Counted from the stretch's first letter, positions 4,244 through 56,635 are shown. The stretch: 64,000 nucleotides of DNA from Polyangiaceae bacterium (GCA_050287085.1 JBNKBE010000016.1:32001-96000), one strand, 5' to 3'. The notes: a model not told the origin generated them from the letters alone. Program-made: numbers and translations.

Positions 4244-4409
4244 CGGACAACGCCACGTCTTGGCTGAACGCAACGGTCGGGCTTTCAGCGGTAGCAGAGA
4301 GCTCGACCGTTGCGTCTTGCCTCAAGGTGCGTTCGCAAAGGGTGCAATTATCGCGCTCCAGGTGTTGGACCTTCTACAGGCGACCCGTTGTCGACCGTAT
4401 CTGAAGTTG

Positions 4410-23862: not shown

Positions 23863-23889
23863 AGTGACGATAGGTCCTGGCGAATCAGC

Positions 23890-25221: not shown

Positions 25222-25239
25222 TGAGAGCTGTCCTGTTCC

Positions 25240-39594: not shown

Positions 39595-40587
39595 ATGGTC
39601 AGATGTTTCTCCGGCTCGTGGTCAGTGGTGGTCGTATCCAGCGTAGCGTTGGCGGCGCTTGCCTGCGCTTCCGCGACGGAGCCTCGCCGTGAAGTTCCGG
39701 GGCCGACGCCGCCCACTGGGTCCGTGGCCACCGACGGTGGGACCAGCGTCGCCGTTCCGACAACCGACGAGTCCGGAGACGAGTTTGGAGACGAGCCTGT
39801 GGACGTGGCTCGTCCGCCTTCAGTGGAGGTCTCGGATGCCTCCGCTGGTGTCAGCACCGTAGAGATCTTCGAGACGCTACCCGAGGGCTTCTTGCCTGCC
39901 GACGAGACGGACCCCGAGACCAGCAAAGGGGGGCTCAAGTTGCTGGGACCCCTGGCGGAAGTGTCAGCGCCGGAGGGCGAGTGTGGCAATATTCTGCGGA
40001 TCATCGTGCGGGACTTTCAAGGCACCCATGACGACTTCGAGAACGCATCGGACTGGAACCGCTACGAGGTGCAAACCCCCATTGGCGCGACTCGCAAGCC
40101 GGTGAAGGTGAGCGACACCGGTCCCACTCATTTTGAAGAGTGGTACCAGAACGTGGAAGGGACAAACCTTCCATTTGCAGTGGATCTTTGGTTGGAGCCG
40201 GTGAACGGAGTCTACGTATTCGACTCCACAGCGTTCTTTCCGCTGCACGATGTGGGGTACAACGACACCTATCTGTTTACGACGGAGTTGCACACGAACT
40301 TCGTATACCGGGAAGGGGACGTATTCACGTTCCGGGGAGACGACGATGTCTTCGTGTTCATCAACGGCCACGAGGCGGTCAATCTGAGCGGCGTTCACAT
40401 CGCTGAGGAGGCGACCGTAAGTCTTGATGAGGTGGCAGAAGACTTCGGGCTAGAACTTGGCAACGGGTATACCTTTGACTTATTTCAGGCGGAGCGGCAG
40501 CCGTCTGGTTCGAACTTTCGCTTGGAGACGACCCTGGACTTCACGGGCTGCGCCGAAATCTTACCGACGGATGTCATCATTCAGTAG
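39595..40587 (+). CDS. Fibro-slime (PA14-like) domain lipoprotein
   Basis: VRDF..TH.DFE, FFPL, FTTELH..F.Y, FTFRGDDDVFVFING, FQAER...SNFRLET. Confidence 0.88.
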   Translation: MVRCFSGSWSVVVVSSVALAALACASATEPRREVPGPTPPTGSVATDGGTSVAVPTTDESGDEFGDEPVDVARPPSVEVSDASAGVSTVEIFETLPEGFLPADETDPETSKGGLKLLGPLAEVSAPEGECGNILRIIVRDFQGTHDDFENASDWNRYEVQTPIGATRKPVKVSDTGPTHFEEWYQNVEGTNLPFAVDLWLEPVNGVYVFDSTAFFPLHDVGYNDTYLFTTELHTNFVYREGDVFTFRGDDDVFVFINGHEAVNLSGVHIAEEATVSLDEVAEDFGLELGNGYTFDLFQAERQPSGSNFRLETTLDFTGCAEILPTDVIIQ

Positions 40588-40717
40588 GCGCGCCGCGGCT
40601 CCCCTCTTCTTTCAAGAGTAGGCTGACGGCTGCCGAGCTTCGCGTGGGGTGAAGCGAAAGCCGGGTCGCGGGTGAAATTGTTGCGGGGTTCCCCGCAAGG
40701 CCTTGCTGAGAGATGTC

Positions 40718-40748
40718 GGACAGACATATCCCTCAGATATGTCTGTCC
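40718..40748. promoter_or_regulatory. 13-bp perfect inverted repeat overlapping a probable start codon
   Basis: GGACAGACATATC-CCTCA-GATATGTCTGTCC; ATG at 40739 lies in the right arm. Confidence 0.55.
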
Positions 40749-41998
40749 TGCCCTTCGTGGTGCTTCTCTTTCTGCTAACTGTGCCCGCCCTGGCTCAGGA
40801 GGTGGCGACAGCAACACCCGCGCAGCAGACCCAGACATCGAGCTCCTCGTCGCAGTGGCGGCACCGGCGATACCGCGCGCTGCTGTCACCGGTTCGAGAG
40901 GTCGAGATGGTGGCTCTCAACGGGCTGACGCTGAACAAAGGCCTCCAGGATCTCTACGTTCAGGGTATTGGTCCCGAGCTCGGCGCCGCCAGTTCCGTGG
41001 TGGGAACGCTCTGGTCGGCGACTTTCACCTATCTCACAACTCTTTGGCCTCATGAGCTCGGTCATTGGTCTCGGGCGCCACAGGTGGGGGGGAGGTTCGT
41101 GTTTCACGACTACATGCCTTTCTTCCCGACAACGACCGTCGAGTTGTCAGATGCGGCGAGCGACGAGCAACGCGCACTCATCTCGGTGGGGGGCTTCGAG
41201 GTCAACGCGCTCATGGCCCGTCGCTTCGAGCTCGAATTTCACCAGCGTGGCTGGGCCTATTCGGACGAGTTGGTGCACGGTCTGCTCCAGGAAATGTTCT
41301 TTCCGATCTATGCGTTTCTGGTGATCCCGCGGGATCCGACGTTGGCCTCAACATGGACGCGCACCGCAGGAGATCCAGTTCATTTCGTGCTTCCGACTTG
41401 GCAACAAGCCACCGGTCGTCAGCCGCTTCGGGGGGATGGCTCGGTCGACCCCGGGTTAGTGCGTTATTATCGCGAAGCTACGCTCACGGCGCTTGTTCTG
41501 CCCTGGCTCGATCCGACGACGTGGCAAGCGCTGCTCGCCTTTTTCGACGCTCACGAGCGTGGTCATTACGCAACCCGCCGGAGCTGGGTCCTACTGGGGG
41601 ACCGCCAGTTCGGATGGACCTATGGCACGCGCTTTGTGCCGACGGTGCTTGGCTATGAGTTGCACTTGGACAACTACCTCTTCCTGGGGCAGCGGCTGGT
41701 GGTGCTCTCACCTCACGCTGGACGGCTCTCCAAGAACGTGGGCGTCGCTCTCCGTTTGCCGGAGCTGTTGCGAACGTCGGCGCAGCGCGTCGGCGTGGAT
41801 CTCGACGTCTGGTCGCAGGAGCGGTACGGTTTTGGTGCGGCTCTAACCGCCGAAGTCGAGCATGACTTTTCGAACGGCGTGAGCCTATTTGCCCGCGTCG
41901 GGGCCAAGGACGAGGGCTATCTGGTGGGACGGCGCTTGGCGACGGGCGTCATGGCCTTGGCAGGCATCGGTGGGCGCTTGGCCACGCATCAGCAGTGA
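40739..41998 (+). CDS. Exported hypothetical protein with HExxH motif and beta-rich C-terminus
   Basis: Signal peptide (ALA-QE), WPHELGH, downstream GGFE, C-terminal amphipathic strands. Confidence 0.65.
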   Translation: MSVLPFVVLLFLLTVPALAQEVATATPAQQTQTSSSSSQWRHRRYRALLSPVREVEMVALNGLTLNKGLQDLYVQGIGPELGAASSVVGTLWSATFTYLTTLWPHELGHWSRAPQVGGRFVFHDYMPFFPTTTVELSDAASDEQRALISVGGFEVNALMARRFELEFHQRGWAYSDELVHGLLQEMFFPIYAFLVIPRDPTLASTWTRTAGDPVHFVLPTWQQATGRQPLRGDGSVDPGLVRYYREATLTALVLPWLDPTTWQALLAFFDAHERGHYATRRSWVLLGDRQFGWTYGTRFVPTVLGYELHLDNYLFLGQRLVVLSPHAGRLSKNVGVALRLPELLRTSAQRVGVDLDVWSQERYGFGAALTAEVEHDFSNGVSLFARVGAKDEGYLVGRRLATGVMALAGIGGRLATHQQ

Positions 41999-42270
41999 TG
42001 CGTAGCACTTCCCCTGCCAAGTAAGGAGTCGACCGCAGAATGCGTCCCGCTCGCTCGGGGCGGGCCCTGCGTTGGCGGGCGCTTGTATGTTGCCGCACGG
42101 ATCGCGTTCGGACTCGCATTCCGGGCTGAGTACGGTCTGGCGTTTTTGAGGTCGGTTCTTAGCAAAGAGTCCGCACCGGCCGTTGTTTGCCGAGAGACGA
42201 TGTCGGGCGTTTGGGAACTTGCGGTGGCGTGCCCTCGGGTACGTCCAGGGCGCGGCGTGGAGGTGCTTCG

Positions 42271-44643
42271 GTGAGCGAGTGGATTCGCATACGCGGCGCT
42301 GTTCAAGGGGTAGGCTTTCGACCTACCGTGGCGCGCATTGCGGGGAGCCAGGGACTTGCGGGCTTTGTGCGCAATGACGCTGACGGCGTCTTGATTGGGC
42401 TCGCGTCAGATGAACTCGGTTGTTCCAATTTCCTCTCCACCCTACTGACCGAGCTTCCGAGGCTCGCTCGTATTGAGAGTATCGAGCGAGAGCCCGCGCC
42501 GGTCGAGCCCCTCGCATTCCAGATACTCGGCAGTGAAGAGGGCGTCCCGAACACCGAGGTAGTGGCTGATGCCACGGTGTGCTCCGAGTGTGTCAGCGAG
42601 GTTCTCGATCCTGCGCAACGACGATACCGCTATCCACTCACGACCTGCACCAACTGTGGTCCGCGCTTCAGCATTGCGACGGCCATTCCCTTCGATCGGG
42701 CCAATACGACGCTTGCGGGATATCCTCTCTGCGAGCGCTGTCTCGAGGAGTATGGCGATGAAGGCGATCGCCGATTTCACGCTCAGGCCCTGGCCTGCCC
42801 CAGTTGTGGTCCACAGGTCCACTTTGAGCCGAGCAGCCAGCAGGGCGGCGAGCAGATCAGCCAGCAGGGCGGCGAGCAGGGCGGCGTGCGGGTAAACGAC
42901 GAAGATCCGATCGCCGCTGCCGCAGGGCGGATATTGGCGGGGGACATCGTGGCAATCAAAGGGGTGGGCGGCTACCAACTCTGTTGCGACGCAACCAACC
43001 CAAGCGCCGTCGCCACATTGCGGCAGCGCAAGCGTCGGCCTCACAAAGCATTTGCCATCATGGTGCCGGACCTTGCCGCAGCCGAAGCGCTGGGCCTATT
43101 GAATGAGGCCGAGCGGGCCGCGTTGAGTGGCTCCGCAGGGCCGATTGTCTTGCTGACTCGTCGAGCCGCGCGCGAGAATGACGTTTCGATTGCCGAGGCG
43201 GTGGCGCCCGATCAGCCACGCTTAGGCGTGATGCTACCAACCAGCCCGCTGCACGGCTTGCTCTTGGCTGGCGTTGGGAGGCCCATCGTATGCACGAGTG
43301 GCAATCTAACGAGTGAACCTCAATGTATTGACGACGACGACGCCCGGCAGCGACTAGCACGAGTCGCAGATTGGTTTGTCACTCACGATAGGGCGATCCA
43401 CAGCCGTGTTGACGATTCGGTTGCCGTACACCTAGCTGGCAAGATTCGGCTGCTTCGGCGTGCTCGCGGGTACGCCCCCAGTCCCCTAGCGCTGCCACCG
43501 GGGCTGGAAGACGCTCCCGCGCTGGTGGCTTTCGGCGCCGACCTCAAGGCCACGTTTGCGCTTGCCGCTGCTGGGTGGGCGACGCTGTCCCCACATCTCG
43601 GAGATATCGAAGAGCTGCGCACGTACGATGCATATCGACGTGCGCTTTCTCTGGCATCGGCGCTGCGGCGGCATCGTCCGGAGCTGGTGGTTTGCGATGC
43701 GCACGTGGGTTATCAGAGTCGCGCTTTGGCTCAGCAATTCGCCCAAGCGGCGGACTTGAGACTCGTTGAGGTCATGCACCACCACGCTCATATCTGCGCC
43801 TGCTTGGTGGACAATCGTTGGCCTCTGGACGCCGGACCCGTGCTGGGCCTCGCGCTGGACGGCCTCGGCGCTGGACCGCGCGGCGAACTTTGGGGTGGGG
43901 AACTACTTCACTGCGACTATCGGCGATTCGAACGTCTTGGATCGCTTGGGTCCGCGCCACTATTGGGAGGAGACGCCGCATCTCGCATGCCGTGGCGCTC
44001 GCTCTATGCACACCTTCGGTCTGCCGTGACGTGGGAAGAGCTTGAAACACAACATGCAAACCTCGAGGTTGTTGGCTGCCTGCGCTCGAAGCGCACTCCA
44101 CTGATGGAGCAGGTGTTGGACGATCCGGCGCTATCCCCCAGAGCGAGCTCTTCAGGTCGCTTCTTCGACGCCGTCGCGGCAGCTCTCGGTCTAGCCCGCG
44201 AAGCTGCTGAATACGAGGGGCAAGCCGCGATGCTATTGGAGGCTCTGGTTCCACCAACGCTCGAGGTTGAGTGCCTATCCGATTCGTACCCATTGCCCTG
44301 CCGGACCGATGCTGATGGCGTATGGAAGCTCGGAACTGGGGCTATCTGGCGACCGCTACTTCGAGACCTGGGAGCGGGGCTTCCGAGAGCTACGATCGCC
44401 GCGCGCGTCTTCGGAGGGGTGATTGGAGGGCTGGTTCAGCTCCTACGCTACGGACGAGAAAGAACGGGTCTAGCTACAGTCGTCCTGAGCGGTGGGTGCT
44501 TTCAGAACCGGGTGCTGCTCGAGGGGCTCACCCGCGCATTGCGAAGCGACGGGTTCGAACTGTTGTTGCACGAGCGCGTGCCGCCACACGACGGATGCAT
44601 TTCGCTTGGACAGGCCGCGATCGCCGCGGCCAGAGAGAGGTAG
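42271..44643 (+). CDS. hypF: Hydrogenase maturation carbamoyltransferase HypF
   Basis: RGAVQGVGFRP acylphosphatase domain, zinc fingers CTNCGPR and FHAQALACPSCGP, KGVGGY, HHHAH, GGCFQN; GGAGG RBS before GTG 42271. Confidence 0.96.
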   Translation: MSEWIRIRGAVQGVGFRPTVARIAGSQGLAGFVRNDADGVLIGLASDELGCSNFLSTLLTELPRLARIESIEREPAPVEPLAFQILGSEEGVPNTEVVADATVCSECVSEVLDPAQRRYRYPLTTCTNCGPRFSIATAIPFDRANTTLAGYPLCERCLEEYGDEGDRRFHAQALACPSCGPQVHFEPSSQQGGEQISQQGGEQGGVRVNDEDPIAAAAGRILAGDIVAIKGVGGYQLCCDATNPSAVATLRQRKRRPHKAFAIMVPDLAAAEALGLLNEAERAALSGSAGPIVLLTRRAARENDVSIAEAVAPDQPRLGVMLPTSPLHGLLLAGVGRPIVCTSGNLTSEPQCIDDDDARQRLARVADWFVTHDRAIHSRVDDSVAVHLAGKIRLLRRARGYAPSPLALPPGLEDAPALVAFGADLKATFALAAAGWATLSPHLGDIEELRTYDAYRRALSLASALRRHRPELVVCDAHVGYQSRALAQQFAQAADLRLVEVMHHHAHICACLVDNRWPLDAGPVLGLALDGLGAGPRGELWGGELLHCDYRRFERLGSLGSAPLLGGDAASRMPWRSLYAHLRSAVTWEELETQHANLEVVGCLRSKRTPLMEQVLDDPALSPRASSSGRFFDAVAAALGLAREAAEYEGQAAMLLEALVPPTLEVECLSDSYPLPCRTDADGVWKLGTGAIWRPLLRDLGAGLPRATIAARVFGGVIGGLVQLLRYGRERTGLATVVLSGGCFQNRVLLEGLTRALRSDGFELLLHERVPPHDGCISLGQAAIAAARER

Positions 44644-44648
44644 ATGAA

Positions 44649-44945
44649 ATGTGCTTAGGCGTTCCGGGACAGATCGTTGCAATTGAGGATGCTGAACGGC
44701 GCATCGGTGTGGTCGATGTCGCTGGAACTCGCCGCACGGCGAACCTGGCGTGCGTCATCGACGAAGGACCGATCGAGGCGTGTATAGGTCAGTGGGTGCT
44801 TTTGCACGTAGGCTTCGCGATGAGTCGCATTGATGCGGAAGAAGCGCGGCGTACCATGGCGCTTCTTGTCGAGCTGGGCGAAGCCGAACAAGAGATAGCT
44901 GAAGGGCGCACCTCCGCTCAGCAGAAGGAGGTGCGCCGTGTCTGA
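44649..44945 (+). CDS. hypC: Hydrogenase chaperone HypC
   Basis: MCLGVPGQIV...WVLLHVGFAMSRID.EEA. Confidence 0.95.
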   Translation: MCLGVPGQIVAIEDAERRIGVVDVAGTRRTANLACVIDEGPIEACIGQWVLLHVGFAMSRIDAEEARRTMALLVELGEAEQEIAEGRTSAQQKEVRRV

Positions 44946-45624
44946 TGCTTTGGCGCAGCTGTATCCGGGCATGGTCGACAACGCTCACGCGCGTGGCGCT
45001 AGTTCCGACGAACTCAGTGCCAGTGTACTCGTCAAGGCTCGCGAAAGCGCTCGCGTACGCGACGCCTTCTTCGAAGCCCATGCGACGTCTTTGGTCGCCA
45101 TGGCAGACGCCCTTTCGAAGGTGTTTCGAGCCGGAAATCGCTTGCTGACCATCGGAAACGGAGGGTCCGCTTGCGACGCGGCGCACCTGGCCGTGGAGTT
45201 CAATCATCCGGTGACGGTAGGGCGTCCGTCGCTTTCCGCGATTCACCTGGGCGCGGATGCCCCGACCCTGACGGCCGTGGGTAATGATGTGAACTTTGAC
45301 GCCGTATATCGTCGCATGGTCGCCACTCACGGCCGCGCCGGCGACGCGCTCTTTGCCTTTTCTACGAGCGGCAACAGTGGCAATCTGTTGGCCGGAGTCG
45401 AAGAGGCACATCGGCGCGGTTTGGTCACGTTTGCCCTGCTAGGCAATGATGGTGGAGCGTTGGCGCGCTCCGCATGCCTAGCCCATCATCTTGTTGTACC
45501 CAGCTCGAGCGTGCACCGCGTGCAGGAGACGCACTTACTCGCCTACCACATCTTGTGGGACTTGGTTCATACCCTTCTACACGCAACGCCCACAGACCCA
45601 CTGGCAAGCGGGGTGGCCTCATGA
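44938..45624 (+). CDS. SIS-domain protein, GmhA/phosphoheptose isomerase-like, within the hyp operon
   Basis: GNGGSACDAAH, TAVGND, STSGNS.N, HRVQETH. Confidence 0.85.
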   Translation: MSDALAQLYPGMVDNAHARGASSDELSASVLVKARESARVRDAFFEAHATSLVAMADALSKVFRAGNRLLTIGNGGSACDAAHLAVEFNHPVTVGRPSLSAIHLGADAPTLTAVGNDVNFDAVYRRMVATHGRAGDALFAFSTSGNSGNLLAGVEEAHRRGLVTFALLGNDGGALARSACLAHHLVVPSSSVHRVQETHLLAYHILWDLVHTLLHATPTDPLASGVAS

Positions 45625-46760
45625 AGTATGTTGAAGAGTTCCGAGATCCAAGCCAGGCGGCACCCATCGTGGCTCGTATCGAGTCGCTCATGCAGCGCAT
45701 ACGGCGCGAAGTAGGGCTGAAGAGTGTCAAAATCATGGAGGTATGCGGGGGACATACGCATTCCATCTTCAAGTTCGGATTGGAAAGCATGCTTCCGTCC
45801 GAGGTTGAGCTGGTACATGGTCCGGGGTGCCCAGTTTGCGTCCTGCCAGTGGGGCGGATAGACGACGCCATTGCGATCGCCGAGCAAGCGGATGTCATCT
45901 TCGCCACGTTCGGCGACGCAGTGCGAGTACCGGGTTCGAAAGGCAGCCTGCTTGCGGCCAAGGCTCGGGGCGCAGACGTGCGAACGGTTTATTCACCAGC
46001 GGATGCTTTGCGATTAGCCCGAAAGAACCCAGAACGTCAGGTGGTCTTTTTTGGCCTCGGATTCGAGACGACCGCGCCTTCGACGGCCTTGACGGTGATC
46101 GAGGCGGAGGCAGACGGTATCAGGAACTTCTCCGTCTTCTCCAACCACATCACCATTGTACCTACGTTGAAGGCCATTTTGGACTCGCCGGACCTCCGTT
46201 TGGATGGCTTCATCGGTCCAGGGCACGTCGCAATGGTAATCGGTACCAAGCCCTTCCAGTTCGTGTCGGAGCGGCACAAGAAGCCGCTTGTCATCTCGGG
46301 GTTCGAACCCTTGGACGTATTGCAGTCCCTCGTCATGTTGCTCGAGCAAATAGCCGGGCGGCAAGCGCGCGTGGAGAATCAGTACACGCGGCTGGTTCGG
46401 CAGAATGGGAATACGGCGGCGCTCCACGCTCTCACCGAGGTCTTTACGCTGCGGCCGTTCTTTGAGTGGCGGGGGCTCGGATCGGTCGATCATAGCGGTT
46501 TGACGTTTCGCGAGCGCTATCGTGCGTTTGATGCCGAACATCGTTTTACGGTGCCGGGTGTCTCCATTGCCGACCCCAAGGCGTGTCAGTGCGGCGAAGT
46601 CCTGAAGGGGGCGATCAAGCCCTGGGACTGCAAGGTATTTGGCACCGCCTGCACCCCGGAGACGCCGATTGGCTCATGCATGGTGTCGAGCGAAGGCGCC
46701 TGTGCGGCGCACTACAACTATGGGCGTCTGCACGCGATCCGCTTGAAGGTGACCACATGA
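45621..46760 (+). CDS. hypD: Hydrogenase maturation protein HypD
   Basis: MEVCGGHTH, GPGCPVCV, GFETT, PGHV, CMVSSEGACAA. Confidence 0.97.
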   Translation: MKYVEEFRDPSQAAPIVARIESLMQRIRREVGLKSVKIMEVCGGHTHSIFKFGLESMLPSEVELVHGPGCPVCVLPVGRIDDAIAIAEQADVIFATFGDAVRVPGSKGSLLAAKARGADVRTVYSPADALRLARKNPERQVVFFGLGFETTAPSTALTVIEAEADGIRNFSVFSNHITIVPTLKAILDSPDLRLDGFIGPGHVAMVIGTKPFQFVSERHKKPLVISGFEPLDVLQSLVMLLEQIAGRQARVENQYTRLVRQNGNTAALHALTEVFTLRPFFEWRGLGSVDHSGLTFRERYRAFDAEHRFTVPGVSIADPKACQCGEVLKGAIKPWDCKVFGTACTPETPIGSCMVSSEGACAAHYNYGRLHAIRLKVTT

Positions 46761-47842
46761 GCGCCGCTAACATCGACGACACGCTATTTGCTCGCTTGGA
46801 GAAGTTTCGACGCCGCTCGGGCAAGGTGCGCCAATCGCGCATAGAACTCGCGCACGGCGGAGGAGGCAAAGCCATGCGCGACCTGCTCGATCACGTCGTG
46901 GTCGCAGAGCTGGGAGGTGCCGTTCAAGACCACGAAGACCAGGCGCGCATGGAGTTGGGCGCGTTGACCCCGGGCGACAAGCTGGCGATGACGACCGACG
47001 GCTATGTCGTAAGCCCCTTGCAGTTCCCCGGCGCGGATATCGGACGGCTGGCGGTGTGTGGAACCGTAAACGATCTCGCGGTCGGAGGTGCACGTCCGAT
47101 GTATCTCTCCTGTGGCCTCATCATCGAGGAGGGCTTGGACGTTCAGGTGTTGCGCACCGTGCTGCGTAGCATGGCGGCTGCAGCGGTCGAGGCGGGCGTG
47201 AGCATCGTGACCGGTGATACGAAAGTCGTGCCGCGAGGGGCGGCAGATCGGCTTTTCATTAGCACCACTGGGGTTGGACTCATCAGTTCGACATGTGACG
47301 TGGGAGCTCATCGTATCAAAGCGGATGATGTGGTGCTCATCAATGGATTCTTAGGGGACCACGCCGCTGCTATCATGGCGGCTCGAGGTGAGTTGCGCAT
47401 CGAGACGGACATCGCCAGTGACTGTGCCCCACTCAATACGTTGATCGCGCAAGTATTGGACAGCGTAGAGGTTCACGCGATGCGAGATGTGACCCGCGGC
47501 GGGCTCGCAGCGGTTCTCAATGAGCTCGCGCTGGCATCAGAAGTGGGCATGGTCGTAAACGAGCGACAGCTACCGGTTCGAGCGGAGGTGGCCGGCCTGT
47601 GCGAATTGCTGGGGCTTGACCCCGTGCATCTCGCCAACGAGGGAAAGGTGGCTGTGGTTCTGCCTGAGTCACAGGCAACACGTGCTCTTGAGGTCATGCG
47701 CGGCCATCCCTTGGGGCGCGACGCGGCGCTGATCGCGCGCTGCCGAGCTGCGCCGCCCGGCCTGGTAACGGTTGACACCGGATTCGGAGGCGAGCGTGTC
47801 TTGGACATGCTGGTGGGGGAGCCACTACCGAGGATCTGTTGA
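46757..47842 (+). CDS. hypE: Hydrogenase maturation protein HypE
   Basis: AHGGGG, GTVNDLA, GDTKVV, DVTRGG, C-terminal PRIC. Confidence 0.97.
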   Translation: MSAANIDDTLFARLEKFRRRSGKVRQSRIELAHGGGGKAMRDLLDHVVVAELGGAVQDHEDQARMELGALTPGDKLAMTTDGYVVSPLQFPGADIGRLAVCGTVNDLAVGGARPMYLSCGLIIEEGLDVQVLRTVLRSMAAAAVEAGVSIVTGDTKVVPRGAADRLFISTTGVGLISSTCDVGAHRIKADDVVLINGFLGDHAAAIMAARGELRIETDIASDCAPLNTLIAQVLDSVEVHAMRDVTRGGLAAVLNELALASEVGMVVNERQLPVRAEVAGLCELLGLDPVHLANEGKVAVVLPESQATRALEVMRGHPLGRDAALIARCRAAPPGLVTVDTGFGGERVLDMLVGEPLPRIC

Positions 47843-48171
47843 TGCATGAGTTGAGCGTTACCAAGAGCATCGTGTCGGCCTGCGCTGAGCGCGCGGGAAC
47901 CCGCAAAGTGCAAGCGGTGCATCTGCGGATTGGTCGCTTCTCCGGAGTAGAGCCCCACGCAGTGCGCTTCTGTTTTGAGCTCTGCGTAGCGGGAACAACT
48001 CTCGAAGGTGCTGAACTTGTGATCGAGGAGGTAGCCGGCAAGGGCCGATGCAAGGGGTGCGGGGAGCAGCTCGCTCTCGAGCTCCCCATCGCTCTTTGTC
48101 CCTGCGAGCGGAGAGAGAGCGTGGAACTGGTAGCCGGTGAAGAGCTGCTGATCGAGGCAATGGAGATATGA
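47842..48171 (+). CDS. hypA: Nickel metallochaperone HypA
   Basis: MHE N-terminus; CKGC...CPC zinc site; GEEL. Confidence 0.93.
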   Translation: MHELSVTKSIVSACAERAGTRKVQAVHLRIGRFSGVEPHAVRFCFELCVAGTTLEGAELVIEEVAGKGRCKGCGEQLALELPIALCPCERRESVELVAGEELLIEAMEI

Positions 48172-48174
48172 CTC

Positions 48175-49104
48175 ATGTGTACGACTTGCGGATGTAATGG
48201 AATGGGGGCGACGGTATCGGGGCCTGATGGGGAACACACGCACGTGGCAGCTGATGGTACCGTAGTCACGCATCGTCATGATGGTGGAGGCCATACCCAT
48301 GTGCATGCGGGGCCAGCTAACTCCCGCGGCTTCGACACTCCGGCCGTTGATGGCCATGGGCACACTCACGGGCATTCGAACGCGGCCGACAACGTAGTGA
48401 AGCTCGAGCAACGCATTCTGCTGAAAAACGACCACATCGCACAACACAATCGCGAGTTCTTTGCCGACTCACATATCGCCGCCGTCAACCTCATGAGTTC
48501 ACCTGGGGCAGGAAAGACGACACTGCTCGAGTATACGCTGAAGAGACTGTCTGGTTCGGCAACCGTCTTGGAGGGAGATCAGGAAACGAGCCATGATGCT
48601 CAGCGAATACGAGCGACGGGCGCACGCGCCGTTCAGATAAATACGGGTACTGGTTGTCACCTCGACGCGGATATGGTGCGTCAAGGCATCGCTCAACTCG
48701 AGCCCGAGCCGTCGTCCATCTTGTTCATAGAAAACGTGGGCAATTTGGTTTGTCCGGCACTCTTTGATCTTGGGGAAACGGCGCGGGTCGTTCTGTTCAG
48801 TGTCACTGAAGGTGAGGACAAGCCTCTGAAGTACCCACATATGTTTCGACAAGCCGATCTCGTTCTACTGACCAAGACGGACCTGCTCCCGCACTTGAGG
48901 TTTGACGTAGGGGCTGCTTTGGACGCCGTCGAAAGAATCCGTCCCGGCGTCTCGATGCTGCGTGTCTCGACTCAGAGCGGAGAGGGAACCGATGCCTGGA
49001 TGAGCTGGCTGGAGCATTGTTTGAGTCACCTCAAAGATGGCACGTCCCTTGTGGCGAAGCGGGAGCCAGGGCTGGGGCGCCAAGCATTGTCCGAGAGGTC
49101 GTAG
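48175..49104 (+). CDS. hypB: Nickel-insertion GTPase HypB
   Basis: MCTTCGC, His-rich stretch, SSPGAGKTTLL, GCHLDA, ENVGNLVCP, KPLKYP. Confidence 0.97.
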   Translation: MCTTCGCNGMGATVSGPDGEHTHVAADGTVVTHRHDGGGHTHVHAGPANSRGFDTPAVDGHGHTHGHSNAADNVVKLEQRILLKNDHIAQHNREFFADSHIAAVNLMSSPGAGKTTLLEYTLKRLSGSATVLEGDQETSHDAQRIRATGARAVQINTGTGCHLDADMVRQGIAQLEPEPSSILFIENVGNLVCPALFDLGETARVVLFSVTEGEDKPLKYPHMFRQADLVLLTKTDLLPHLRFDVGAALDAVERIRPGVSMLRVSTQSGEGTDAWMSWLEHCLSHLKDGTSLVAKREPGLGRQALSERS

Positions 49105-49164
49105 CGGGCCCCGCGGGTCGCTGCGGACCCACTTCGCCTTCGAGTTGACCCCGCGGCGACTTCG

Positions 49165-49226
49165 CAGACGAATTTTGTGCACGGCTCGTTCTGGAGGAAT
49201 CCAGACGTCGACCGTTCACGGCTCGT
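49165..49226 (+). promoter_or_regulatory. Bipartite direct repeat CAGACG-N9-CACGGCTCGT x2 (37-bp period) upstream of the hydrogenase small subunit
   Basis: Copies at 49165-49189 and 49202-49226. Confidence 0.5.
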
Positions 49227-49250
49227 ACACAACAAATTTTCGGGGGTACG

Positions 49251-50237
49251 ATGACGGCAACACTACTCTGGCTTCAAACAGGCGCCTGCAGCGGAGATAC
49301 GATGTCGATTCTCAATGCAGAGTCGCCCAATCTGCTTGAAGCGTTGCAAAACTACGGGATCGAGCTGCTTTGGCACCCTTCGTTGTCAACGGAGACGCCC
49401 AAGCAATTGCTTGAAATCATTAATCAGATCTGTGCAGGGAAACGGGAGCTGACCGTGCTGGCGGTTGAGGGTTCGATCGCCTTCGGGCCAGACGGGACGG
49501 GCATGTATGATCCCTTCCACGGACGCGCCAAGAAGGATATCGTGGCCGAGCTCGCAGAACAGGCCCAGTTCGTGGTTGCGATGGGCACGTGTGCGTCTTT
49601 TGGCGGTGTAGTAGCCGCTGAGCCGAACCCCACGGACGCAACGGGGCTGCAGTTCCTCCGCGCGAAGAAGGAGGGGGCTCTGTTGGCTCCGGACTGGGTA
49701 TCGCGAGGCGGGCTACCCGTGGTGAATGTAGCAGGGTGTCCGGCACATCCGAGAACGATGGTCGAAACGCTGATGACCTTGCTCTTGGCGGGTACGATCG
49801 AACTCGATCCACTCAACCGTCCAGCAACCTACTTCGATCGCGTTGTGCATCAGGGCTGCACTCGCAATGAGTATCACGAGTACAACGTTGAAGAGTCGGG
49901 TTTCGGCGGTCAAGGGTGCTTGTACTTCAACATGGGTTGCCAAGGGCCGTACACGCAGGGGCGCTGCAACACCGATCTGTGGAACGAGGTAAACAGCAAG
50001 CCGCGTGCGGGCGTGCCTTGTTATGGGTGTACGGCACCTACATTCCCGAAGGCGCAAGATCTTCTTAAGACGGAGAAGATTGGGGCCGTACCGGTCACCA
50101 TGCCGCGAGGCGTGAGTCGTCCGCAGTATATGGCCTACAAGGGGTTGGCGAAAGCGGCCGGACCCGAGCGACTGGTCAAGCTTCGACGCAAAGCCCCAGC
50201 CGCAGAGGCGAGTTCAAAAACCAGCGCCGCTGAATGA
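49251..50237 (+). CDS. [NiFe]-hydrogenase small subunit, group 2-type, cytoplasmic (no Tat signal)
   Basis: LLWLQTGACSGDTMS, LLWHPSLS, VEGS, GTCASFGG, GCP.HP, HQGC.RNE, GC...MGC.GP, PCYGC. Confidence 0.93.
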   Translation: MTATLLWLQTGACSGDTMSILNAESPNLLEALQNYGIELLWHPSLSTETPKQLLEIINQICAGKRELTVLAVEGSIAFGPDGTGMYDPFHGRAKKDIVAELAEQAQFVVAMGTCASFGGVVAAEPNPTDATGLQFLRAKKEGALLAPDWVSRGGLPVVNVAGCPAHPRTMVETLMTLLLAGTIELDPLNRPATYFDRVVHQGCTRNEYHEYNVEESGFGGQGCLYFNMGCQGPYTQGRCNTDLWNEVNSKPRAGVPCYGCTAPTFPKAQDLLKTEKIGAVPVTMPRGVSRPQYMAYKGLAKAAGPERLVKLRRKAPAAEASSKTSAAE

Positions 50238-50247
50238 GGAGTGAGCC

Positions 50248-51783
50248 ATGTCACGAGAGATAATCCAGCTGGACATGAATCGAGTCGAGGGAGATCTCGA
50301 GATCAAGCTGCAGCTAGACGACAACGTTATCGCCGACGCGTGGTGTATCGGCACCATGTACCGGGGATTCGAACAGATCTTGGTGGGGCGAGCTGCGCGA
50401 GACGGTCTGGTCATCACGCCGCGCATCTGCGGCATCTGCGGCACCGCGCACCATGCTTGTGCCGCGACGGCACTCGAAACTGCGTTTGGTCTTGCGATAG
50501 CACCGAACGGCACACGCGTGAGAAACGCGTGCCTGTTGTCCGAGGAAAGCCAGAGCGACATGCGCCACAGCTTTCTGATGTTCACGGTCGACTTCTGTCA
50601 TGCCCGCTACGCGGGGCACCCCATGTATCAGACGCTGGTGGACGCGTTCGAGCCGTTCAAAGGGAGGATCTATCGTGAGACGATCGAACACTCCAAGGAG
50701 ATATTGAAGATCGTCGCGCTGTTCGGGGGACAGTGGCCTCACTCCACGTATATGGTTCCTGGCGGCGTAAGCTGCGTTCCTGACAATTCGCGCGTGCTCA
50801 ACGCCCTGGCGATCGCGGATCGCTACGCAAATTGGTATGAGCGAAGCATCTTGGGATGTTCCATCGAGCGGTGGTCCCAGGTGGGTTCGCTTGCGGATAT
50901 CGAGACCTGGCTCGATGAATCCGAGGCGCATGCCAATAGCGCGATGGGTCTATTCATTCGCTTTGGTCGGGAGATCGGTCTTCACAAGGCCGGTATCGGA
51001 CAGGGCAATCTGCTCAGCTACGGCTCGTGTTATGACCCTGATGCCTGGCAGCCTCCTTTCGACAACCACGCGACCTGGCGGAGTGCGGGCTTCTTCGACG
51101 CGGAGACCAAGACGCTAGAGAAGCTGGATCATCAGCTTATCGCAGAACACGTGCGCCACTCCTTCTACGTGGACTATGAGGGGGGTAAACATCCGTGGCA
51201 GGGCGTTACCATGCCGGACTACCTGCCTGATACAGAGAAGTACTCGTGGGCAAAGGCGCCGAGATACAAGGACAAAGTGGTTGAGGCAGGTCCACTCGCG
51301 GATCAGATCTGTGCCGGAGATCCGCTGGTTCGTGCACTATTCGACGCAGAGGGCTCGAACAGCTGGCTACGGCAGTTCACACGAATACATCGGCCAAGCC
51401 AGTCGCTGCCCAAACTGCGTTCCACGTTGTTGGAGCTTCTGGAACGTCAGGCGGACCCATACGTAATCAATCATATCATACCCACCGACAGAGCCCGAGG
51501 CTTGGGTGCGGTTCAGGCCGCCCGGGGCGCCCTGGCGCACTGGGTGGAGTTTGAAGACGCCAAGATCACGCGCTATCAGGTCATTACGCCGACAGCCTGG
51601 AATGCCTCACCCCGCGATACCGCTGGGCGACGAGGGCATTGGGAGGAGTCAATGATCGGCACGGAGGTCCAAGACATCAATGACCCGATAGAGATCGGGC
51701 ATATCATCCGTTCACACGACGCCTGCTTGGTGTGCACGGTGCATATGCTGGACACAGGTGATAAGTTCAGATTTGGAGTGTGA
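50248..51783 (+). CDS. [NiFe]-hydrogenase large subunit, group 2-type (2c-like), with C-terminal extension
   Basis: NRVEGDLE, L1 PRICGICGTAH, GGQWPHS.YMVPGG, L2 RSHDACLVCTVH followed by 12 residues. Confidence 0.93.
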   Translation: MSREIIQLDMNRVEGDLEIKLQLDDNVIADAWCIGTMYRGFEQILVGRAARDGLVITPRICGICGTAHHACAATALETAFGLAIAPNGTRVRNACLLSEESQSDMRHSFLMFTVDFCHARYAGHPMYQTLVDAFEPFKGRIYRETIEHSKEILKIVALFGGQWPHSTYMVPGGVSCVPDNSRVLNALAIADRYANWYERSILGCSIERWSQVGSLADIETWLDESEAHANSAMGLFIRFGREIGLHKAGIGQGNLLSYGSCYDPDAWQPPFDNHATWRSAGFFDAETKTLEKLDHQLIAEHVRHSFYVDYEGGKHPWQGVTMPDYLPDTEKYSWAKAPRYKDKVVEAGPLADQICAGDPLVRALFDAEGSNSWLRQFTRIHRPSQSLPKLRSTLLELLERQADPYVINHIIPTDRARGLGAVQAARGALAHWVEFEDAKITRYQVITPTAWNASPRDTAGRRGHWEESMIGTEVQDINDPIEIGHIIRSHDACLVCTVHMLDTGDKFRFGV

Positions 51784-52274
51784 TGAGTACTTCGGCGGTA
51801 CCGCTATTTGGTACCCATACGCGGGTCGTATGCTTCGGCAACAGGCTGCACGGCGACGACGCTTTTGGGTGTCATGTACATGATGCGTTGGCGGCGCACG
51901 GGATCCCCGGGGAGGCGAGTCTGCACGATGCTGGCACGTCCGGACTCGGCGCCGTCTTGTTCTTCGAGGGCTGCCGGCGGGCAATTGTGGTGGACGCTAT
52001 TGGTCCGAGCAAGACCCCAGGGAGGTTGCGTGCGCTCAGCGTCAGAGAGGCTCTCGACGTCGACCGGCCCCTCTCTACCCACGCACAAGGCTTGGGCTAT
52101 CTGTTCTCGGCCCTCTCCATAGCGCTGCCAAGCATGCCGGCAATCACCATTGTCGGCGTGGACATCGACGCCGTCGATACCTTTTGCGAGACACTCAGTC
52201 GACCCGTGGCGTGCATGGTGGAGCCAGCGCGGGACATGGTACTTGATTTTCTTTGCGAGCAAGAAGCGGGATAG
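51783..52274 (+). CDS. Hydrogenase maturation endopeptidase (HycI/HupD family)
   Basis: GNRLHGDDAFG, DAGTSG, IVVDA, STH; TGATG overlap with the large-subunit stop. Confidence 0.9.
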   Translation: MSTSAVPLFGTHTRVVCFGNRLHGDDAFGCHVHDALAAHGIPGEASLHDAGTSGLGAVLFFEGCRRAIVVDAIGPSKTPGRLRALSVREALDVDRPLSTHAQGLGYLFSALSIALPSMPAITIVGVDIDAVDTFCETLSRPVACMVEPARDMVLDFLCEQEAG

Positions 52275-52276
52275 AA

Positions 52277-54241
52277 ATGGACGCTGCAACTTCGAATGAG
52301 GCAAGCCTTGACCGCGTAAGGGCTTTGGAGATGGAAGTCGAGGCTTTGAGCTCCGCGGCTCGTGAACAAGAGCGCATGGTGCTCGAGGGTTACGAGAAGA
52401 TGGACGAGATGCTGCGACTCGTCGAAGAGCAGCGGGACCGCCTGGAGGCATCGAACGGGGATCTGGCCCGCGCCCAGGCCTACTTGGACAACGTGGTGGA
52501 CACCATCGACGAGGCCTTGTTGGTGCTAAATCCTGCCGGCAAGGTCACGTTGGTAAACTCGAAGCTGCTAAGTCTCACGGGCTTTGAGGTTGGCGACGTG
52601 CTTGGGGGCGACCCGCTGGAGTTCTTCTGCGCGAAGGAGCTTTCGGACCTGGCAGGGGGGGAAGCGGTGGATAGCGGCGCAGCCCTGGCACGCGTGCTCA
52701 CCAAGAAGCGTGGCGAGCACTTGGACGGTCACTTGATTACTCGCTCTGGAGACCGCCTCGCTCACCTATTTCGCTGGTCGAATCTCTACACGAAAGCCGG
52801 AAAACGAGAAGGTGTGGTCATCGTTGGCGCGGATGTGCGTCGACTGCGAGCGACCCTCAACGCCATAGAGCGCGCCAATGCCGAGATGCGTCTGATCTTC
52901 GCCACGGTAGATCAGGGTCTGATGTCGATCGACAGCAATGGGACAATAGCGGCCGAACGCTCTGATCGGGTAGAGGAGTGGTTCGGCGACGTGGTCGAGG
53001 GGTCGAGAGTTTGGGAGTATTTGGGAGCGAAGGATCCCACCTTCGCCGGTATGCTTCGACTCGGGTGGGAGACGGTCTGCGAAGGATTCATGCCACTAGA
53101 GGTGTGCGTGGAGCAATTACCAAAGCGCATGCGACGTGGCGAGACTACGTATGACGTTGGCTATAACGTCATTGTGGACGGCGAGACGGTTACCGGCGCG
53201 TTGATAGTCGTCACAGACGTTAGCATTCAGCTGAGAGAGGCTGAAGAGCGCGCGCTGCGCGAAGAGCTGGCGGATACCGTTGAGCGCATCACTCGCGATC
53301 GTCAGGGTTTTCTGGAGTTCTTCGAAGAGACTCGAAGGATCATGGCCACACTGCTACGTCCCACAAAGGGGCAAGAGCTAGACAAGGTGACGACTTGTCG
53401 CGCGCTGCATACGCTGAAGGGCACGTGCGCCCTCTTCGGAATTCAAAGCGTGGCACGGGCGAGCCACGCCGTTGAGGAGAAGATACAGAGCTTTGGCGGT
53501 CCGCTCGGTCCTGAGGAGAGGGATGCGCTGGGTGCAGTCTGGGAGGTATTCGAGGAGCGTGTGCGGAGACTGTCCGGCGACGCAAACGCCCTCCAGGTAA
53601 ACCGTGACGAGCACGCGCAGCTCTTGGCCTTGCTTGAAGCGGGCGACGAGCCTGCGGCGGCGCTCCGACTGGCGCGGCGTCTTGCGTTGGAACCGACCAC
53701 AAGCCGTCTGCAGCGGATGGCCAAGCAGGCACAGGCGCTCGCACTTCGGCTCGAGAAAGGGGAAATCGACGTGGTGGTTTCTTGTGGAGAGGAGCGCTTT
53801 GACGCGGCACATTGGTCCGCGTTCTGGGCGTCGCTGGCCCATGTCGTGCGCAACGCGGTGGATCACGGTTTGGAAGCGCCGGACGTTCGCAAGGGGGCCG
53901 GCAAGTCCGAGCGTGGACAACTCACCCTGCGCACCGAGCGTCGAGCCAATGAGGTTGTGATTGAGGTGGCGGACGATGGCGCAGGGATCGATTGGGAAAA
54001 GCTTCGAGCTATAGGTCGGCAGCGCGGGCTGCCTCACAGCAGCGAGCAAGAGTTGTTGGACCTGTTGTTTGTAGGTGGCGTATCGACTCGCGACGAGGCG
54101 ACAGAGACGTCCGGTCGCGGCGTCGGCATGGACGCAGTCAAAGCGGAGTGCGATGCGTTGGGTGGCCGCATCGAGGTGCAATCACGCGCGGGGGAAGGAA
54201 CGCATTGGCGCTTCGTTTTCAACGCCCATCACGTTCTCTGA
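52277..54241 (+). CDS. Cytoplasmic kinase: coiled-coil+PAS input, PAS-like domain, Hpt and CheA-type HATPase (no CheW domain)
   Basis: KMDE...LE.SN..L..AQ.Y...V..T....L.V....G.V..VN..L..LTGF; LHTLKG; HVVRNAVDHG; DDGAGID; SGRGVGMD.VK; starts 2 bp after the protease stop. Confidence 0.88.
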   Translation: MDAATSNEASLDRVRALEMEVEALSSAAREQERMVLEGYEKMDEMLRLVEEQRDRLEASNGDLARAQAYLDNVVDTIDEALLVLNPAGKVTLVNSKLLSLTGFEVGDVLGGDPLEFFCAKELSDLAGGEAVDSGAALARVLTKKRGEHLDGHLITRSGDRLAHLFRWSNLYTKAGKREGVVIVGADVRRLRATLNAIERANAEMRLIFATVDQGLMSIDSNGTIAAERSDRVEEWFGDVVEGSRVWEYLGAKDPTFAGMLRLGWETVCEGFMPLEVCVEQLPKRMRRGETTYDVGYNVIVDGETVTGALIVVTDVSIQLREAEERALREELADTVERITRDRQGFLEFFEETRRIMATLLRPTKGQELDKVTTCRALHTLKGTCALFGIQSVARASHAVEEKIQSFGGPLGPEERDALGAVWEVFEERVRRLSGDANALQVNRDEHAQLLALLEAGDEPAAALRLARRLALEPTTSRLQRMAKQAQALALRLEKGEIDVVVSCGEERFDAAHWSAFWASLAHVVRNAVDHGLEAPDVRKGAGKSERGQLTLRTERRANEVVIEVADDGAGIDWEKLRAIGRQRGLPHSSEQELLDLLFVGGVSTRDEATETSGRGVGMDAVKAECDALGGRIEVQSRAGEGTHWRFVFNAHHVL

Positions 54242-54380
54242 GATGAGCGCTGCGATGAGCCGGTGTCGTCACTTCGTGACGAGGGGAAGGGCGCGACCGA
54301 CGCGAGCGGGAAGGCCGTCGCTGGATTAGGGAATGCTCCTAGCCTGACGCTTGCCGTCCCCGTGAGCTTGGAGCCGAGCG

Positions 54381-55682
54381 CTAGAAGCGTGTGGAGTCCA
54401 AGCGGACCATGGCGCTGTGGTAGCTGCCCTTTTTTGAGGCGCTCCCGGCAGCTTTGGCCACAACGGCCTTGGGCGCGCGCTGGCCGCGGTTGCTCTTGTG
54501 GACGTAGCGAGGGGCTTGTCCTGGGCCCGAGACGTCGACCCAATACATGCGGCTTCCGCGCGCGTCCATGTGGACGTGTGTTGCGTTGGGGTAGTAGCCG
54601 ACGCCTGTACTCGGCAGCGTGAGCAGGAAGTCGACCAGAGCGGTGTTGGGTACACCGGGAATACTGAAGTCGAGGGCACGCCCCAGGCGGTGCTTGGAGT
54701 GACGCGCAAAGGAGCGCTCGCGATAACCGCTTACAACTCGGATCGGCCGACCTCCAAACTCATCGCTAACAGTCACTATCAACTTGTATAGCCGCGGATC
54801 GAGTGTGATCTGTACTTTGCTTCCCGTTTCCCAGGAGGCGAGCAGTGACTCGATGTGTTTCCGTGCGTCGGGCAACACTCCGCCCTGGGCGTCGAGGACT
54901 TGACCGCTCCATTGACCGCCGAGGGTCTTCAGGGTGACCCTGCCGCGCTCGAAGTTTCGCTGGGCGTATTGGCTCCACGCATTGGGCCGAGTGAGGTGCG
55001 TGTTGGCATTGGTTATCGGGATCTTCAATCGCTGTCCGACCCGGATCAACGCGGAGCGACCCAGTTGGTTCAGCTCTTGGAGTGTCTTGGTCGGGACAGT
55101 GTAGCGCGCCGCTATCAGGGATAGTGCCTCGCCGGGGCGAACCTTGTGCAGGTAGTGTTCGGCTTCGGCAGTGGGGCTCGGCTTCACAGTTGTGCGGCGC
55201 GGCTTCTGCTGCTTGGGCGAGCTCGCGGGAGGGGTTGTCGCGTCGCTTGTTCCTGGGGCGCGCGTGCCGCCCGCTACGATCAACCTCTGGCCCACCTTGA
55301 GCAGGCTGCGTTCGTTGAGGTTGTTGTGGCGACATAGCTCGCGTACGGACACCCCCCGGCGCTCAGCGATGACTCCGAGGACGTCTCCGGGGGCCACCGT
55401 ATATAGACTGGGAAGCAGCAAGACCTGACCTGGCCGGATGGCGTCCGTGGCCAGGCCGTTGACCTTGCGGAGAAGGTCGAGCGAGACGTCCTCCCGCTGG
55501 GCGATCAGGCTCAGCACGTCGTTTGGGCGCACCGTATAGGTGGCTCGCTCCGGCTCGCGAGACGAGCTCGCGGTTACCATAGCCTGGCGTGCCCCAGCCT
55601 TTTTTGCCCAGATATTGTGTGTCCAGGCTGTTGCTAGGCACAATACCAACCACCACGTTCGGAAGCGTCTCGCGCGCACCAT
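54381..55682 (-). CDS. Triple-LysM protein with C-terminal peptidase M15/DUF882 (YcbK-like) domain
   Basis: Three Y.V.PG/ND.L..IA LysM repeats; LDPRL, VVSGYR, SKH..GRALDF, GVGYYP, HVHMDAR. Confidence 0.88.
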   Translation of the reverse strand: MVRARRFRTWWLVLCLATAWTHNIWAKKAGARQAMVTASSSREPERATYTVRPNDVLSLIAQREDVSLDLLRKVNGLATDAIRPGQVLLLPSLYTVAPGDVLGVIAERRGVSVRELCRHNNLNERSLLKVGQRLIVAGGTRAPGTSDATTPPASSPKQQKPRRTTVKPSPTAEAEHYLHKVRPGEALSLIAARYTVPTKTLQELNQLGRSALIRVGQRLKIPITNANTHLTRPNAWSQYAQRNFERGRVTLKTLGGQWSGQVLDAQGGVLPDARKHIESLLASWETGSKVQITLDPRLYKLIVTVSDEFGGRPIRVVSGYRERSFARHSKHRLGRALDFSIPGVPNTALVDFLLTLPSTGVGYYPNATHVHMDARGSRMYWVDVSGPGQAPRYVHKSNRGQRAPKAVVAKAAGSASKKGSYHSAMVRLDSTRF

Positions 55683-56635
55683 GGGGCTGCCCTAGACCGA
55701 GGCGGCCACACGGGGCAAAAAACCTACATGCGCCGACATTGGTTTGGGAGAGGGTGACTTAGGTGTCATGCTGAAGTCTCGGCAGAATTTGCGTCCGGCG
55801 ACGACGTGCGGGTGAAGGATCCGGGCTGAGGAGCGATTAACCCCCGTGGAGGCTCTTGGGGTGAACCCGTCGTGGGGCGCTCGCCGGGCGAGCGATTCGT
55901 TGACCTCCTGGACGCTGCGGGCGCCCGTCGTCGTGGCGTTGGTCGCGTAGCTCTTGTGCGAGCATCGCGTCCATTGGGAAGCTGGAGCACAGAGCATCCG
56001 TGCACGAGCAAAGTCTCCCGCGGGCAGGCAAGACGTTAGAGCTGAACACGGCTGGCACAAGCAAGCGATGTGTTCATCTTTTGAGGCATGCTGCGATGGC
56101 CTGTGTCTGCGTCGCTTTCGGCGCTTCAGCTTACTGCCTCGAAGCAGGGGTGAGGCTGCCTCGATGCTGCTGCGTATGCGAATGGCCGATCGGCTCATTC
56201 TGCGATCGCTGGGTCACAAGAGCCTATTGGGATAGGCTCTTCGCCGCTGAGGGACCTGCTTGTTCGAAGAATGCTTACGTCGATACAAGGATCTGACGCG
56301 CTACACCATTAAGACTCTAGGAAGGACATCATCGCGTGTGTCCAAGAGTTTCAATTAATGGATTCGAGGTGCCGGGTAGCGGCTCCGTTTCCAGCGCGCA
56401 CTAGGGTCGGCCTCGCTTGGTGGCGGGGCAGATTCTTCAGTGGTCAACGTTCAGGTTTTCGATGTCGTCGTGCGGCCGTTGAGGACGTGGGAGCGGCGAT
56501 TCACACAGCGGTGTGACGACCTGTTGCACCGAAGAGCCGGCGTAGGGACAAGCGGGCGGCTCGGAGTCGGGGCGAGCCTCGACAGGGCTGACCTAGCGGC
56601 GCCGAAGAGTCTTCAAAATGCAGGAATAGGAATCG

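Follow-up and report, generated by a model that had tools for sequence, protein, structure and literature searches.

A group 2c [NiFe]-hydrogenase encoded with a CheW-less, CheA-type kinase in a Polyangiaceae bacterium: a probable H2- or redox-sensing unit

Among the described systems that come closest to the locus analysed here are the group 2b [NiFe]-hydrogenases, HoxBC of Cupriavidus necator with HoxJ and HoxA, and HupUV with HupT and HupR, in which a leaderless cytoplasmic dimer works with a HisKA kinase and an NtrC-type regulator, and in which HoxB binds HoxJ through its C-terminal domain (PMC8229454; further sources PMC6978683, PMC10073562; works given by PMC number are cited throughout from excerpts of their text). 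Group 2c carries in HydDB the label “diguanylate cyclase-linked (putative)” with its role entered as undetermined, and the same classification predicts an H2 input to kinase or chemotaxis-type signalling for the [FeFe]-hydrogenases C1 (“histidine kinase-linked”) and C2 (“chemotactic (putative)”), enzymes of anaerobes that are fused to receptors or kinases (PMC5037454). The present report concerns a hydrogenase-kinase cluster on a 64,000-nucleotide stretch of DNA from a Polyangiaceae bacterium (the window, G000:C16:32001-96000, in the 6.2 Mb, 96.8% complete assembly G000), which a preliminary description made from the sequence alone had taken for a sensory group 2 hydrogenase feeding a chemotaxis-class kinase in a myxobacterium. 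The host is indeed myxobacterial, and the locus probably encodes an H2- or redox-sensing group 2c hydrogenase that docks on a class III-type kinase and signals in trans to a shared CheY-CheX pair. Group 2c hydrogenases were reportedly predicted as H2 sensors in 2016. The genes and domains in question are the following.

42271..44643, + strand: hypF carbamoyltransferase (TIGR00143, 710 bits, above cut-off; GTG start preceded by a ribosome site)
44649..44945, + strand: hypC chaperone (PF01455, TIGR00074)
44938..45624, + strand: GmhA-like SIS-domain protein within the hyp cluster (PF13580; gmhA models below cut-off)
45621..46760, + strand: hypD (TIGR00075, above cut-off)
46757..47842, + strand: hypE (TIGR02124, above cut-off)
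47842..48171, + strand: hypA (PF01155)
48175..49104, + strand: hypB (TIGR00073, above cut-off)
49251..50237, + strand: group 2c hydrogenase small subunit (cluster types predicted from ligands)
50248..51783, + strand: group 2c hydrogenase large subunit (trees and intact active-site residues)
51783..52274, + strand: hydrogenase maturation endopeptidase (PF01750, TIGR00072, above cut-off)
52277..54241, + strand: kinase, whole gene (PAS, Hpt and HATPase_c matches)
52277..52504, + strand: kinase N-terminal helix, residues 6-76, signature of 2c partners and proposed docking site
52505..53218, + strand: kinase PAS1 (about 80-186), common to 2c partners and HoxJ/HupT-like, and PAS2 (about 213-314), which belongs to the class III core
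53219..54241, + strand: kinase class III (CheW-less, CheA-type) output, with Hpt (His378), helical linker and CheA-P4-like ATPase (N, G1 and G2 boxes)

As first described, all these genes lie on one strand; 146 bp separate hypB from the small-subunit gene, and the small-subunit, large-subunit, protease and kinase genes follow each other at 10 bp, a 1-bp overlap and 2 bp. Nor does the cluster hold a cytochrome b or diaphorase partner, or any regulator of the HoxA/HupR type, again as stated at the outset. The hydrogenase-kinase system is real and patchy among relatives, because the same gene order recurs in L001, a Polyangiaceae record (large subunit 82% and kinase 60% identical to those of the window) that is the same locus as in G004, a genome of the same genus, while only G004, of 60 relatives searched, carries an enzyme of this type; 2a-like enzymes, at 40-42% identity, were found in three more. 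The cluster has the guanine plus cytosine content of the remaining window, an Rfam search of window positions 40000-56000 gave no match, and promoter and terminator scans of the locus returned chance-level results. The GmhA-like SIS gene (44938-45624) stands between hypC and hypD, a position kept in L001.

On sequence criteria, the enzyme of the window is a group 2c [NiFe]-hydrogenase and not a 2a or 2b one. Its large subunit falls into the 2c clade with support of 0.997 (97 rows) and 0.998 (168 rows), together with the diguanylate-cyclase-linked enzymes of Ideonella dechloratans (L011) and Neptuniibacter (L005), both placed under 2c in the HydDB supplement (PMC5037454), and apart from three 2b and five 2a-type rows; the references of these trees came from annotated plasmids (HoxC of pHG1, two more 2b enzymes, the 2a-type enzymes of Runella and Sulfobacillus, and a group 1 outgroup), without the HydDB rows themselves and without 2d or 2e references. 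Identity amounts to 39-42% with 2a enzymes and 32-34% with 2b enzymes, each of which forms a separate clade, and the window locus was found to have none of the accessory genes (for TPR, NifU-like and hypothetical proteins) that the 2a loci L013 and L015 carry. A 2a or 2b assignment was thus rejected on both the trees and the sequence features.

The features themselves are those of an intact enzyme. All four Ni-Fe cysteines of the large subunit (Cys61, Cys64, Cys493 and Cys496), Glu14 and the final His are present, and 12 residues beyond that His form a C-terminal extension, the protease gene coming next; HoxC has no such extension (PMC8229454). The small subunit begins at its catalytic domain and hence has no Tat leader, as had been noted, although the missing Tat peptide and cytochrome b do not diagnose a sensor, since the 2a loci that were fetched show neither. 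Its ligands (proximal, three Cys and an Asp; medial, without the extra Cys of HoxB; distal, a His and three Cys) fit, as far as sequence tells, the 2 x [4Fe4S] + 1 x [3Fe4S] predicted for 2c by HydDB (PMC5037454), and its C-terminal tail can be aligned with that of HoxB. Ile63 and Met111 occupy the positions of the HoxC channel residues Ile62 and Phe110 (PMC11023054), so that the Ile is common to the window enzyme and 2b while Met stands in place of Phe110 and the 2b pair is incomplete. A Methylobacter survey describes 2c enzymes as cytosolic and not known to conserve energy (PMC12810054).

Compared with the 2c enzymes of HydDB, the window enzyme shares their clade, the order small subunit, large subunit, protease, transducer of the Ideonella plasmid locus, and the N-terminal helix-PAS module of the transducer. 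It differs in its full upstream hyp set, in its host, none of the 20 2c rows in the supplement being myxobacterial, and in its output, a CheW-less CheA-type kinase rather than GGDEF-EAL (PMC5037454). The partner here is thus an Hpt-HATPase kinase and not the diguanylate cyclase/phosphodiesterase accessory subunit of the 2c label, which covers only a subset of the clade, many members having HisKA or hybrid kinases; the earlier statement that group 2c is diguanylate-cyclase-linked holds for some members and fails as the sole link, 2c loci having many outputs. Its further claim of a sensory-type group 2 enzyme agrees with the 2c placement.

A large 2c-type clade, 65 rows of the 168-row tree, has a truncated small subunit, in which distal domain and tail are missing, and no gene for a signalling partner close by (L002-L004, L018-L022, L024, L026, L027, L036, L096); its records are labelled Actinomycetes, Solirubrobacteraceae, Nitrospinota, Pyrinomonadaceae, Blastocatellia and Binatia.

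The last gene of the cluster encodes a CheW-less class III-type kinase, not a chemoreceptor-coupled CheA. A structure model (predicted local distance difference test score, pLDDT, 85; 22 rows) has a helix at residues 6-76, PAS folds at 80-186 and 213-314, then a bundle of helices that holds His378, linker helices, and an ATPase superposable on P4 of Thermotoga maritima CheA at 33-35% identity and 2.2-3.1 A; the N, G1 and G2 boxes are conserved, as is His378. CheA is also the best NCBIfam match of the kinase, below cut-off, and ATPase and Hpt phosphorylation site are what the two have in common. However, domain scans and model agree that the chain stops at the ATPase, with no CheW domain, and that the Hpt is internal, behind two PAS folds; canonical CheA, with its N-terminal Hpt and C-terminal CheW-like P5, was rejected on these grounds, and without P2 or P5/CheW there can be no receptor array. 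The scans also gave no HisKA domain and no Rieske domain in the kinase, and no regulator in the cluster. The output domains had been read correctly at first, as a CheA-type ATPase with Hpt, while the single PAS input has become a 70-residue helix and two PAS folds, and the chemotaxis class is to be understood without chemoreceptor coupling.

A sensor followed by Hpt and CheA-like HATPase without CheW is what we take to be a bacterial class III histidine kinase, and the window kinase fits this architecture; the definition is said to come from Wuichet and Zhulin in 2010 and Adebali et al. in 2017. These kinases, unrelated to the fungal “class III” HAMP kinases, have many paralogues with swapped inputs. 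Indeed, the final 450 residues of the window kinase find their matches in a family whose inputs are of the NIT, HAMP, GAF, CHASE8 or membrane kind, G000 encodes at least six compact class III-type kinases including that of the window, with differing inputs, and such kinases also occur in 14 of the 17 other genomes examined in the genus. The literature searched contained no hydrogenase-linked member, and in it we found neither an established input nor an established receiver for CheW-less CheA-type kinases; the input of the window kinase would differ from theirs in being a separate metalloenzyme that docks on a helix. Myxobacteria generally carry type IV pilus motility genes. According to a secondary source, bacterial class III kinases occur alongside a type IV pilus marker (PMC6501615), with which three PilT-family matches above cut-off in G000 weakly agree.

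Several relatives of this kinase have neighbours or inputs of their own. In G000, a hemerythrin gene directly precedes a class III-type kinase (C9:131458-133548, L100), a pair that is possibly an O2-sensing counterpart of the hydrogenase unit; a class III-type kinase whose N-terminal part is a long coiled coil stands behind a FIST-domain gene (C42:5901-8698, L101); and a protein of about 2,000 residues with a terminal class III-type core (C3:49925-55903) recurs in several genomes of the genus. The window itself has a second class III-type kinase with a membrane input, Hpt and HATPase (2088-4073), followed by a hybrid HisKA-REC kinase (4260-6530).

What would join kinase and hydrogenase is probably the N-terminal helix. 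Among 3,819 open reading frames (ORFs) from the loci, every match to kinase residues 1-205 was the transducer of a 2c or 2b hydrogenase locus, and in G000 the same query returned the kinase itself and one match at E 9e-4, the helix signature being found in none of that genome's other class III kinases. At their C-terminal ends the matching partners carry GGDEF-EAL, HisKA, hybrid kinase or Hpt-HATPase outputs, and a second 2c subclade uses a related helix (type B). With profiles of the helix alone, 29 type A and 33 type B ORFs, all adjoining 2c enzymes, were recovered at E<1e-9 from 43,246 ORFs, the next-best matches standing at E>=0.012. All 52 full-length 2c loci that extend at least 1.2 kb downstream (35 of them training rows and 17 not, with some near-duplicates among them) have a helix-bearing partner, and none of seven loci with a small subunit that lacks distal domain and tail has one. 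The helix, and not the PAS fold, is the constant element, because in 13 of 33 type B partners the HisKA H-box lies within 61 residues of the helix and leaves no room for PAS1, which disfavours PAS1 as an essential docking part.

The input of the window kinase can be aligned with those of HoxJ and HupT, helix and PAS1 together matching the HoxJ profile at 96.6% (E 6e-10), and a plasmid-wide search gave eight records with at least 80% module cover, all Bradyrhizobium kinases, the one examined adjoining hoxA in a hup cluster. A search of the ESM Atlas returned generic PAS clusters only. From this homology and co-occurrence we infer that the window kinase would dock on the hydrogenase.

A profile search added SpoIIE phosphatases and adenylate cyclases to the partners and showed several with a Rieske domain N-terminal to the helix; 39 of the 150 listed matches, picked mainly for near-full module cover, were domain-scanned. 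The helix-PAS module is fused to SpoIIE phosphatases and adenylate or guanylate cyclases in P0252, P0255, P0256, P0260, P0266, P0253 and P0281, and two of five SpoIIE proteins share their longest-contig size with a large subunit, which suggests that SpoIIE and cyclase fusions are further, unlisted outputs of 2c hydrogenases. At L040, L043, L053, L056 and L082 the maturation protease is in one frame with a downstream helix-bearing hybrid kinase, possibly a protease-transducer fusion.

The pairing with a CheW-less kinase, for which the preliminary description had asked whether it was conserved, extends beyond the window. It was seen directly in three loci (window, L001 and L017), and 13 of 17 further module-bearing Hpt-HATPase proteins share their longest-contig size with a 2c large subunit, against 0 of 14 control cores without the module; sizes were matched against the 120 best large-subunit clusters, any listed member being allowed. 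Two hydrogenase clades have CheA-type pairing: a compact one (support 0.989; 13 rows, eight with such a kinase) and a Rieske-bearing one with kinases of 1,130-1,210 residues (0.986; 22 rows, eight with a CheA-type kinase). The ATPases of the Rieske type form a separate clade (95), and the window core nests among NIT- and membrane-input kinases (100), deeper nodes being poorly supported; because the ATPase clades are separate, there has been more than one recombination between plug and core. Across 19 pairs, the identities of module and large subunit correlate (rho 0.62). By taxon label, one module-bearing kinase belongs to Bdellovibrionota and one SpoIIE partner to Leptonema. A single-protein query did not find the module among the best seven candidates per genome in 400 further genomes of the phylum; a large-subunit profile found other 2c-type enzymes in four of these, three of them with a type B partner start and the fourth ending before the partner position. 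Chance adjacency of hydrogenase and kinase is rejected by this family-wide pairing. The literature searched, which did not cover key subscription papers, yielded no description of a CheA-type or class III kinase tied to a [NiFe]-hydrogenase.

The hydrogenase cluster of the window holds no receiver. At L017, however, the order is CheX-like, CheY-like, kinase, small subunit, large subunit, protease, and the best matches of its CheX and CheY in G000 are an adjacent pair at C1:227352-228339, the candidate yielded by the scan for cognate receivers that had been proposed. In 19 of 23 loci a CheX-like gene adjoins this type of CheY, and in six of the 22 loci outside G000 a class III core is found no more than 2 kb away from it. 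Across the genus, the presence of class III cores agrees with that of this CheY in 16 of 17 genomes and with that of flagellin in 12 of 17. A circuit from the kinase to CheY and CheX is therefore likely, on evidence that is not specific to flagella.

On these grounds the parts could work as follows. Hyp proteins and protease would mature the group 2c enzyme, for which genes and residues are intact. The dimer, probably by way of the C-terminal region of the small subunit, would bind the co-translated kinase at the N-terminal helix, as in HoxBC-HoxJ. H2 oxidation would shift the redox state of the enzyme, and a signal passing through coiled coil and PAS would switch autophosphorylation of Hpt His378 by the CheA-type ATPase. 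The phosphoryl group would then be passed in trans to a CheY-like receiver of a single domain, which a CheX-type phosphatase would reset, the most likely pair being that at G000:C1:227352-228339, probably common to the cell's other class III kinases. No receptor, CheW, CheB or CheR would be needed, and the signal would therefore be the H2 level and not an adapted gradient. The output would be post-translational, most plausibly surface motility or another behaviour. In favour of a sensor is also that no other hydrogenase to be regulated was found in G000. Such a unit would depart from 2b systems in its Hpt-type rather than HisKA kinase, its large-subunit extension cleaved by a protease, and its lack of an NtrC-type regulator at the locus and of an uptake hydrogenase to induce, and from the [FeFe] C1 and C2 enzymes in that a [NiFe] dimer acts in trans.

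A number of observations weigh against this reading. The small-subunit tail is also found in 2a uptake enzymes, and hence is not specific to sensors; of the O2-excluding pair only Ile63 is kept and the Phe is not; and the literature searched held no experiment on any 2c enzyme. The helix alone matches HoxJ weakly (probability 12%), helix types A and B match each other at just 53%, one haloarchaeal PAS protein outscored the Bradyrhizobium kinases in the plasmid-wide search, and the seven truncated loci form one clade and count as one event. Shared longest-contig sizes are indirect evidence, and P0122, a hydrogenase-paired class III-type kinase, has no Hpt histidine. As to the receiver, 11 CheY-like ORFs are listed in G000, the CheY gene on C1 faces, tail to tail, a CheB-receiver gene and a CheA-like gene, which offer an alternative donor, and the genus tallies are overstated since kin share genes.

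Among the alternatives, true flagellar H2-taxis, in which the kinase would feed a CheY controlling the flagellar switch, comes first, and is unlikely. G000 has five flagellin matches as well as CheW and CheX genes, the ATPase resembles CheA P4, and the CheX-CheY pair on C1 is about 31 kb from a flagellin gene. However, four core-bearing genomes of the genus (93-96% complete) have the matching CheY and no flagellin match, one flagellated genome lacks both cores and CheY, and the system has no built-in adaptation enzymes or receptor coupling. Gradient sensing in chemotaxis normally needs both. The genus tally does not support flagella as the defining output, and the flagellar H2-taxis put forward at first is so far not borne out. 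Flagellin genes occur in 12 of 18 genomes of this Polyangiaceae genus, in G000 on C21 and C1, and a Myxococcota preprint, seen in excerpt, reports flagellar genes in uncultured members.

Still less likely is a complex that reports redox or O2 state, the hydrogenase being a redox electrode set by electron acceptors and H2 one input of several. In many 2c partners the helix is preceded by a Rieske [2Fe-2S] domain, a hemerythrin gene stands ahead of one paralogous class III kinase in G000, and 2b sensing needs continuous H2 oxidation and is O2-sensitive in its signalling (PMC10073562). Yet the window kinase has no Rieske domain, and a full Ni-Fe maturation set for one enzyme would be costly were H2 binding dispensable.

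It is improbable that the locus encodes an energy-conserving soluble uptake hydrogenase of 2a-like kind, with the kinase as passenger or as regulator of its own operon. On the one hand, no solved structure is closer than that of the 2a enzyme Huc; the 2c and 2a groups are sisters, with the protease, the C-terminal extension and a similar tail of the small subunit in common; genes for multihaem cytochromes are found 15-25 kb upstream; a 2c clade without partner exists; and this is the only hydrogenase found in G000, where the scan gave one PF00374 large subunit and no [FeFe] (PF02906) or PF00346 match, extending to the genome the earlier remark that the window has no second hydrogenase. On the other hand, the 2a accessory genes are absent from the locus, every full-length 2c locus examined has a signalling partner at the same place, and the kinase, with no DNA-binding regulator near it, is of a type that travels with CheY and CheX. 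A sole hydrogenase is no rule of the system, because a group 3b-like enzyme, with a hypD to itself, is present as well in the closest relative, G004. The lack of a PF00346 match in G000 also means that the NuoD subunit of complex I was not found there.

Least probable is a kinase that senses its own ligand through PAS, without contact to a merely co-regulated hydrogenase: two PAS folds could bind ligands and kinase cores recombine freely with many inputs, but the helix signature occurs only in genes adjoining 2c enzymes, persists where PAS is missing, and is not in the other class III kinases of G000.

The docked hydrogenase-kinase unit remains the preferred reading, and it allows a wider picture that is possible, if rather doubtful: a receptor-free hub in myxobacteria and related predators, in which several CheW-less kinases with gas or nutrient inputs (hydrogenase, hemerythrin) would converge on one CheY-CheX pair and steer motility, the cell moving or stopping on H2 without using it up itself, the gas being perhaps a sign of fermenting prey or anoxic zones, and a 45-residue helix serving as a universal plug that joins 2c hydrogenases to any output enzyme. 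The locus unites a 2c hydrogenase with a CheW-less kinase and allows the parts to be named: enzyme, maturases, docking helix, phospho-His, and candidate CheY and CheX. If the reading is right, H2 would be information for a cell without another hydrogenase, H2 signalling would widen from transcription to post-translational control of behaviour, and a portable helix would be at hand for H2 biosensors with a chosen output.

Elsewhere in the window, a receiver gene is followed by a PAS-HisKA protein without HATPase match (61568-62967, - strand), and a cluster of multihaem c-type cytochromes with an FAD/4Fe-4S oxidoreductase occupies positions 17328-27111 on the - strand, 15-25 kb upstream of the hydrogenase locus.

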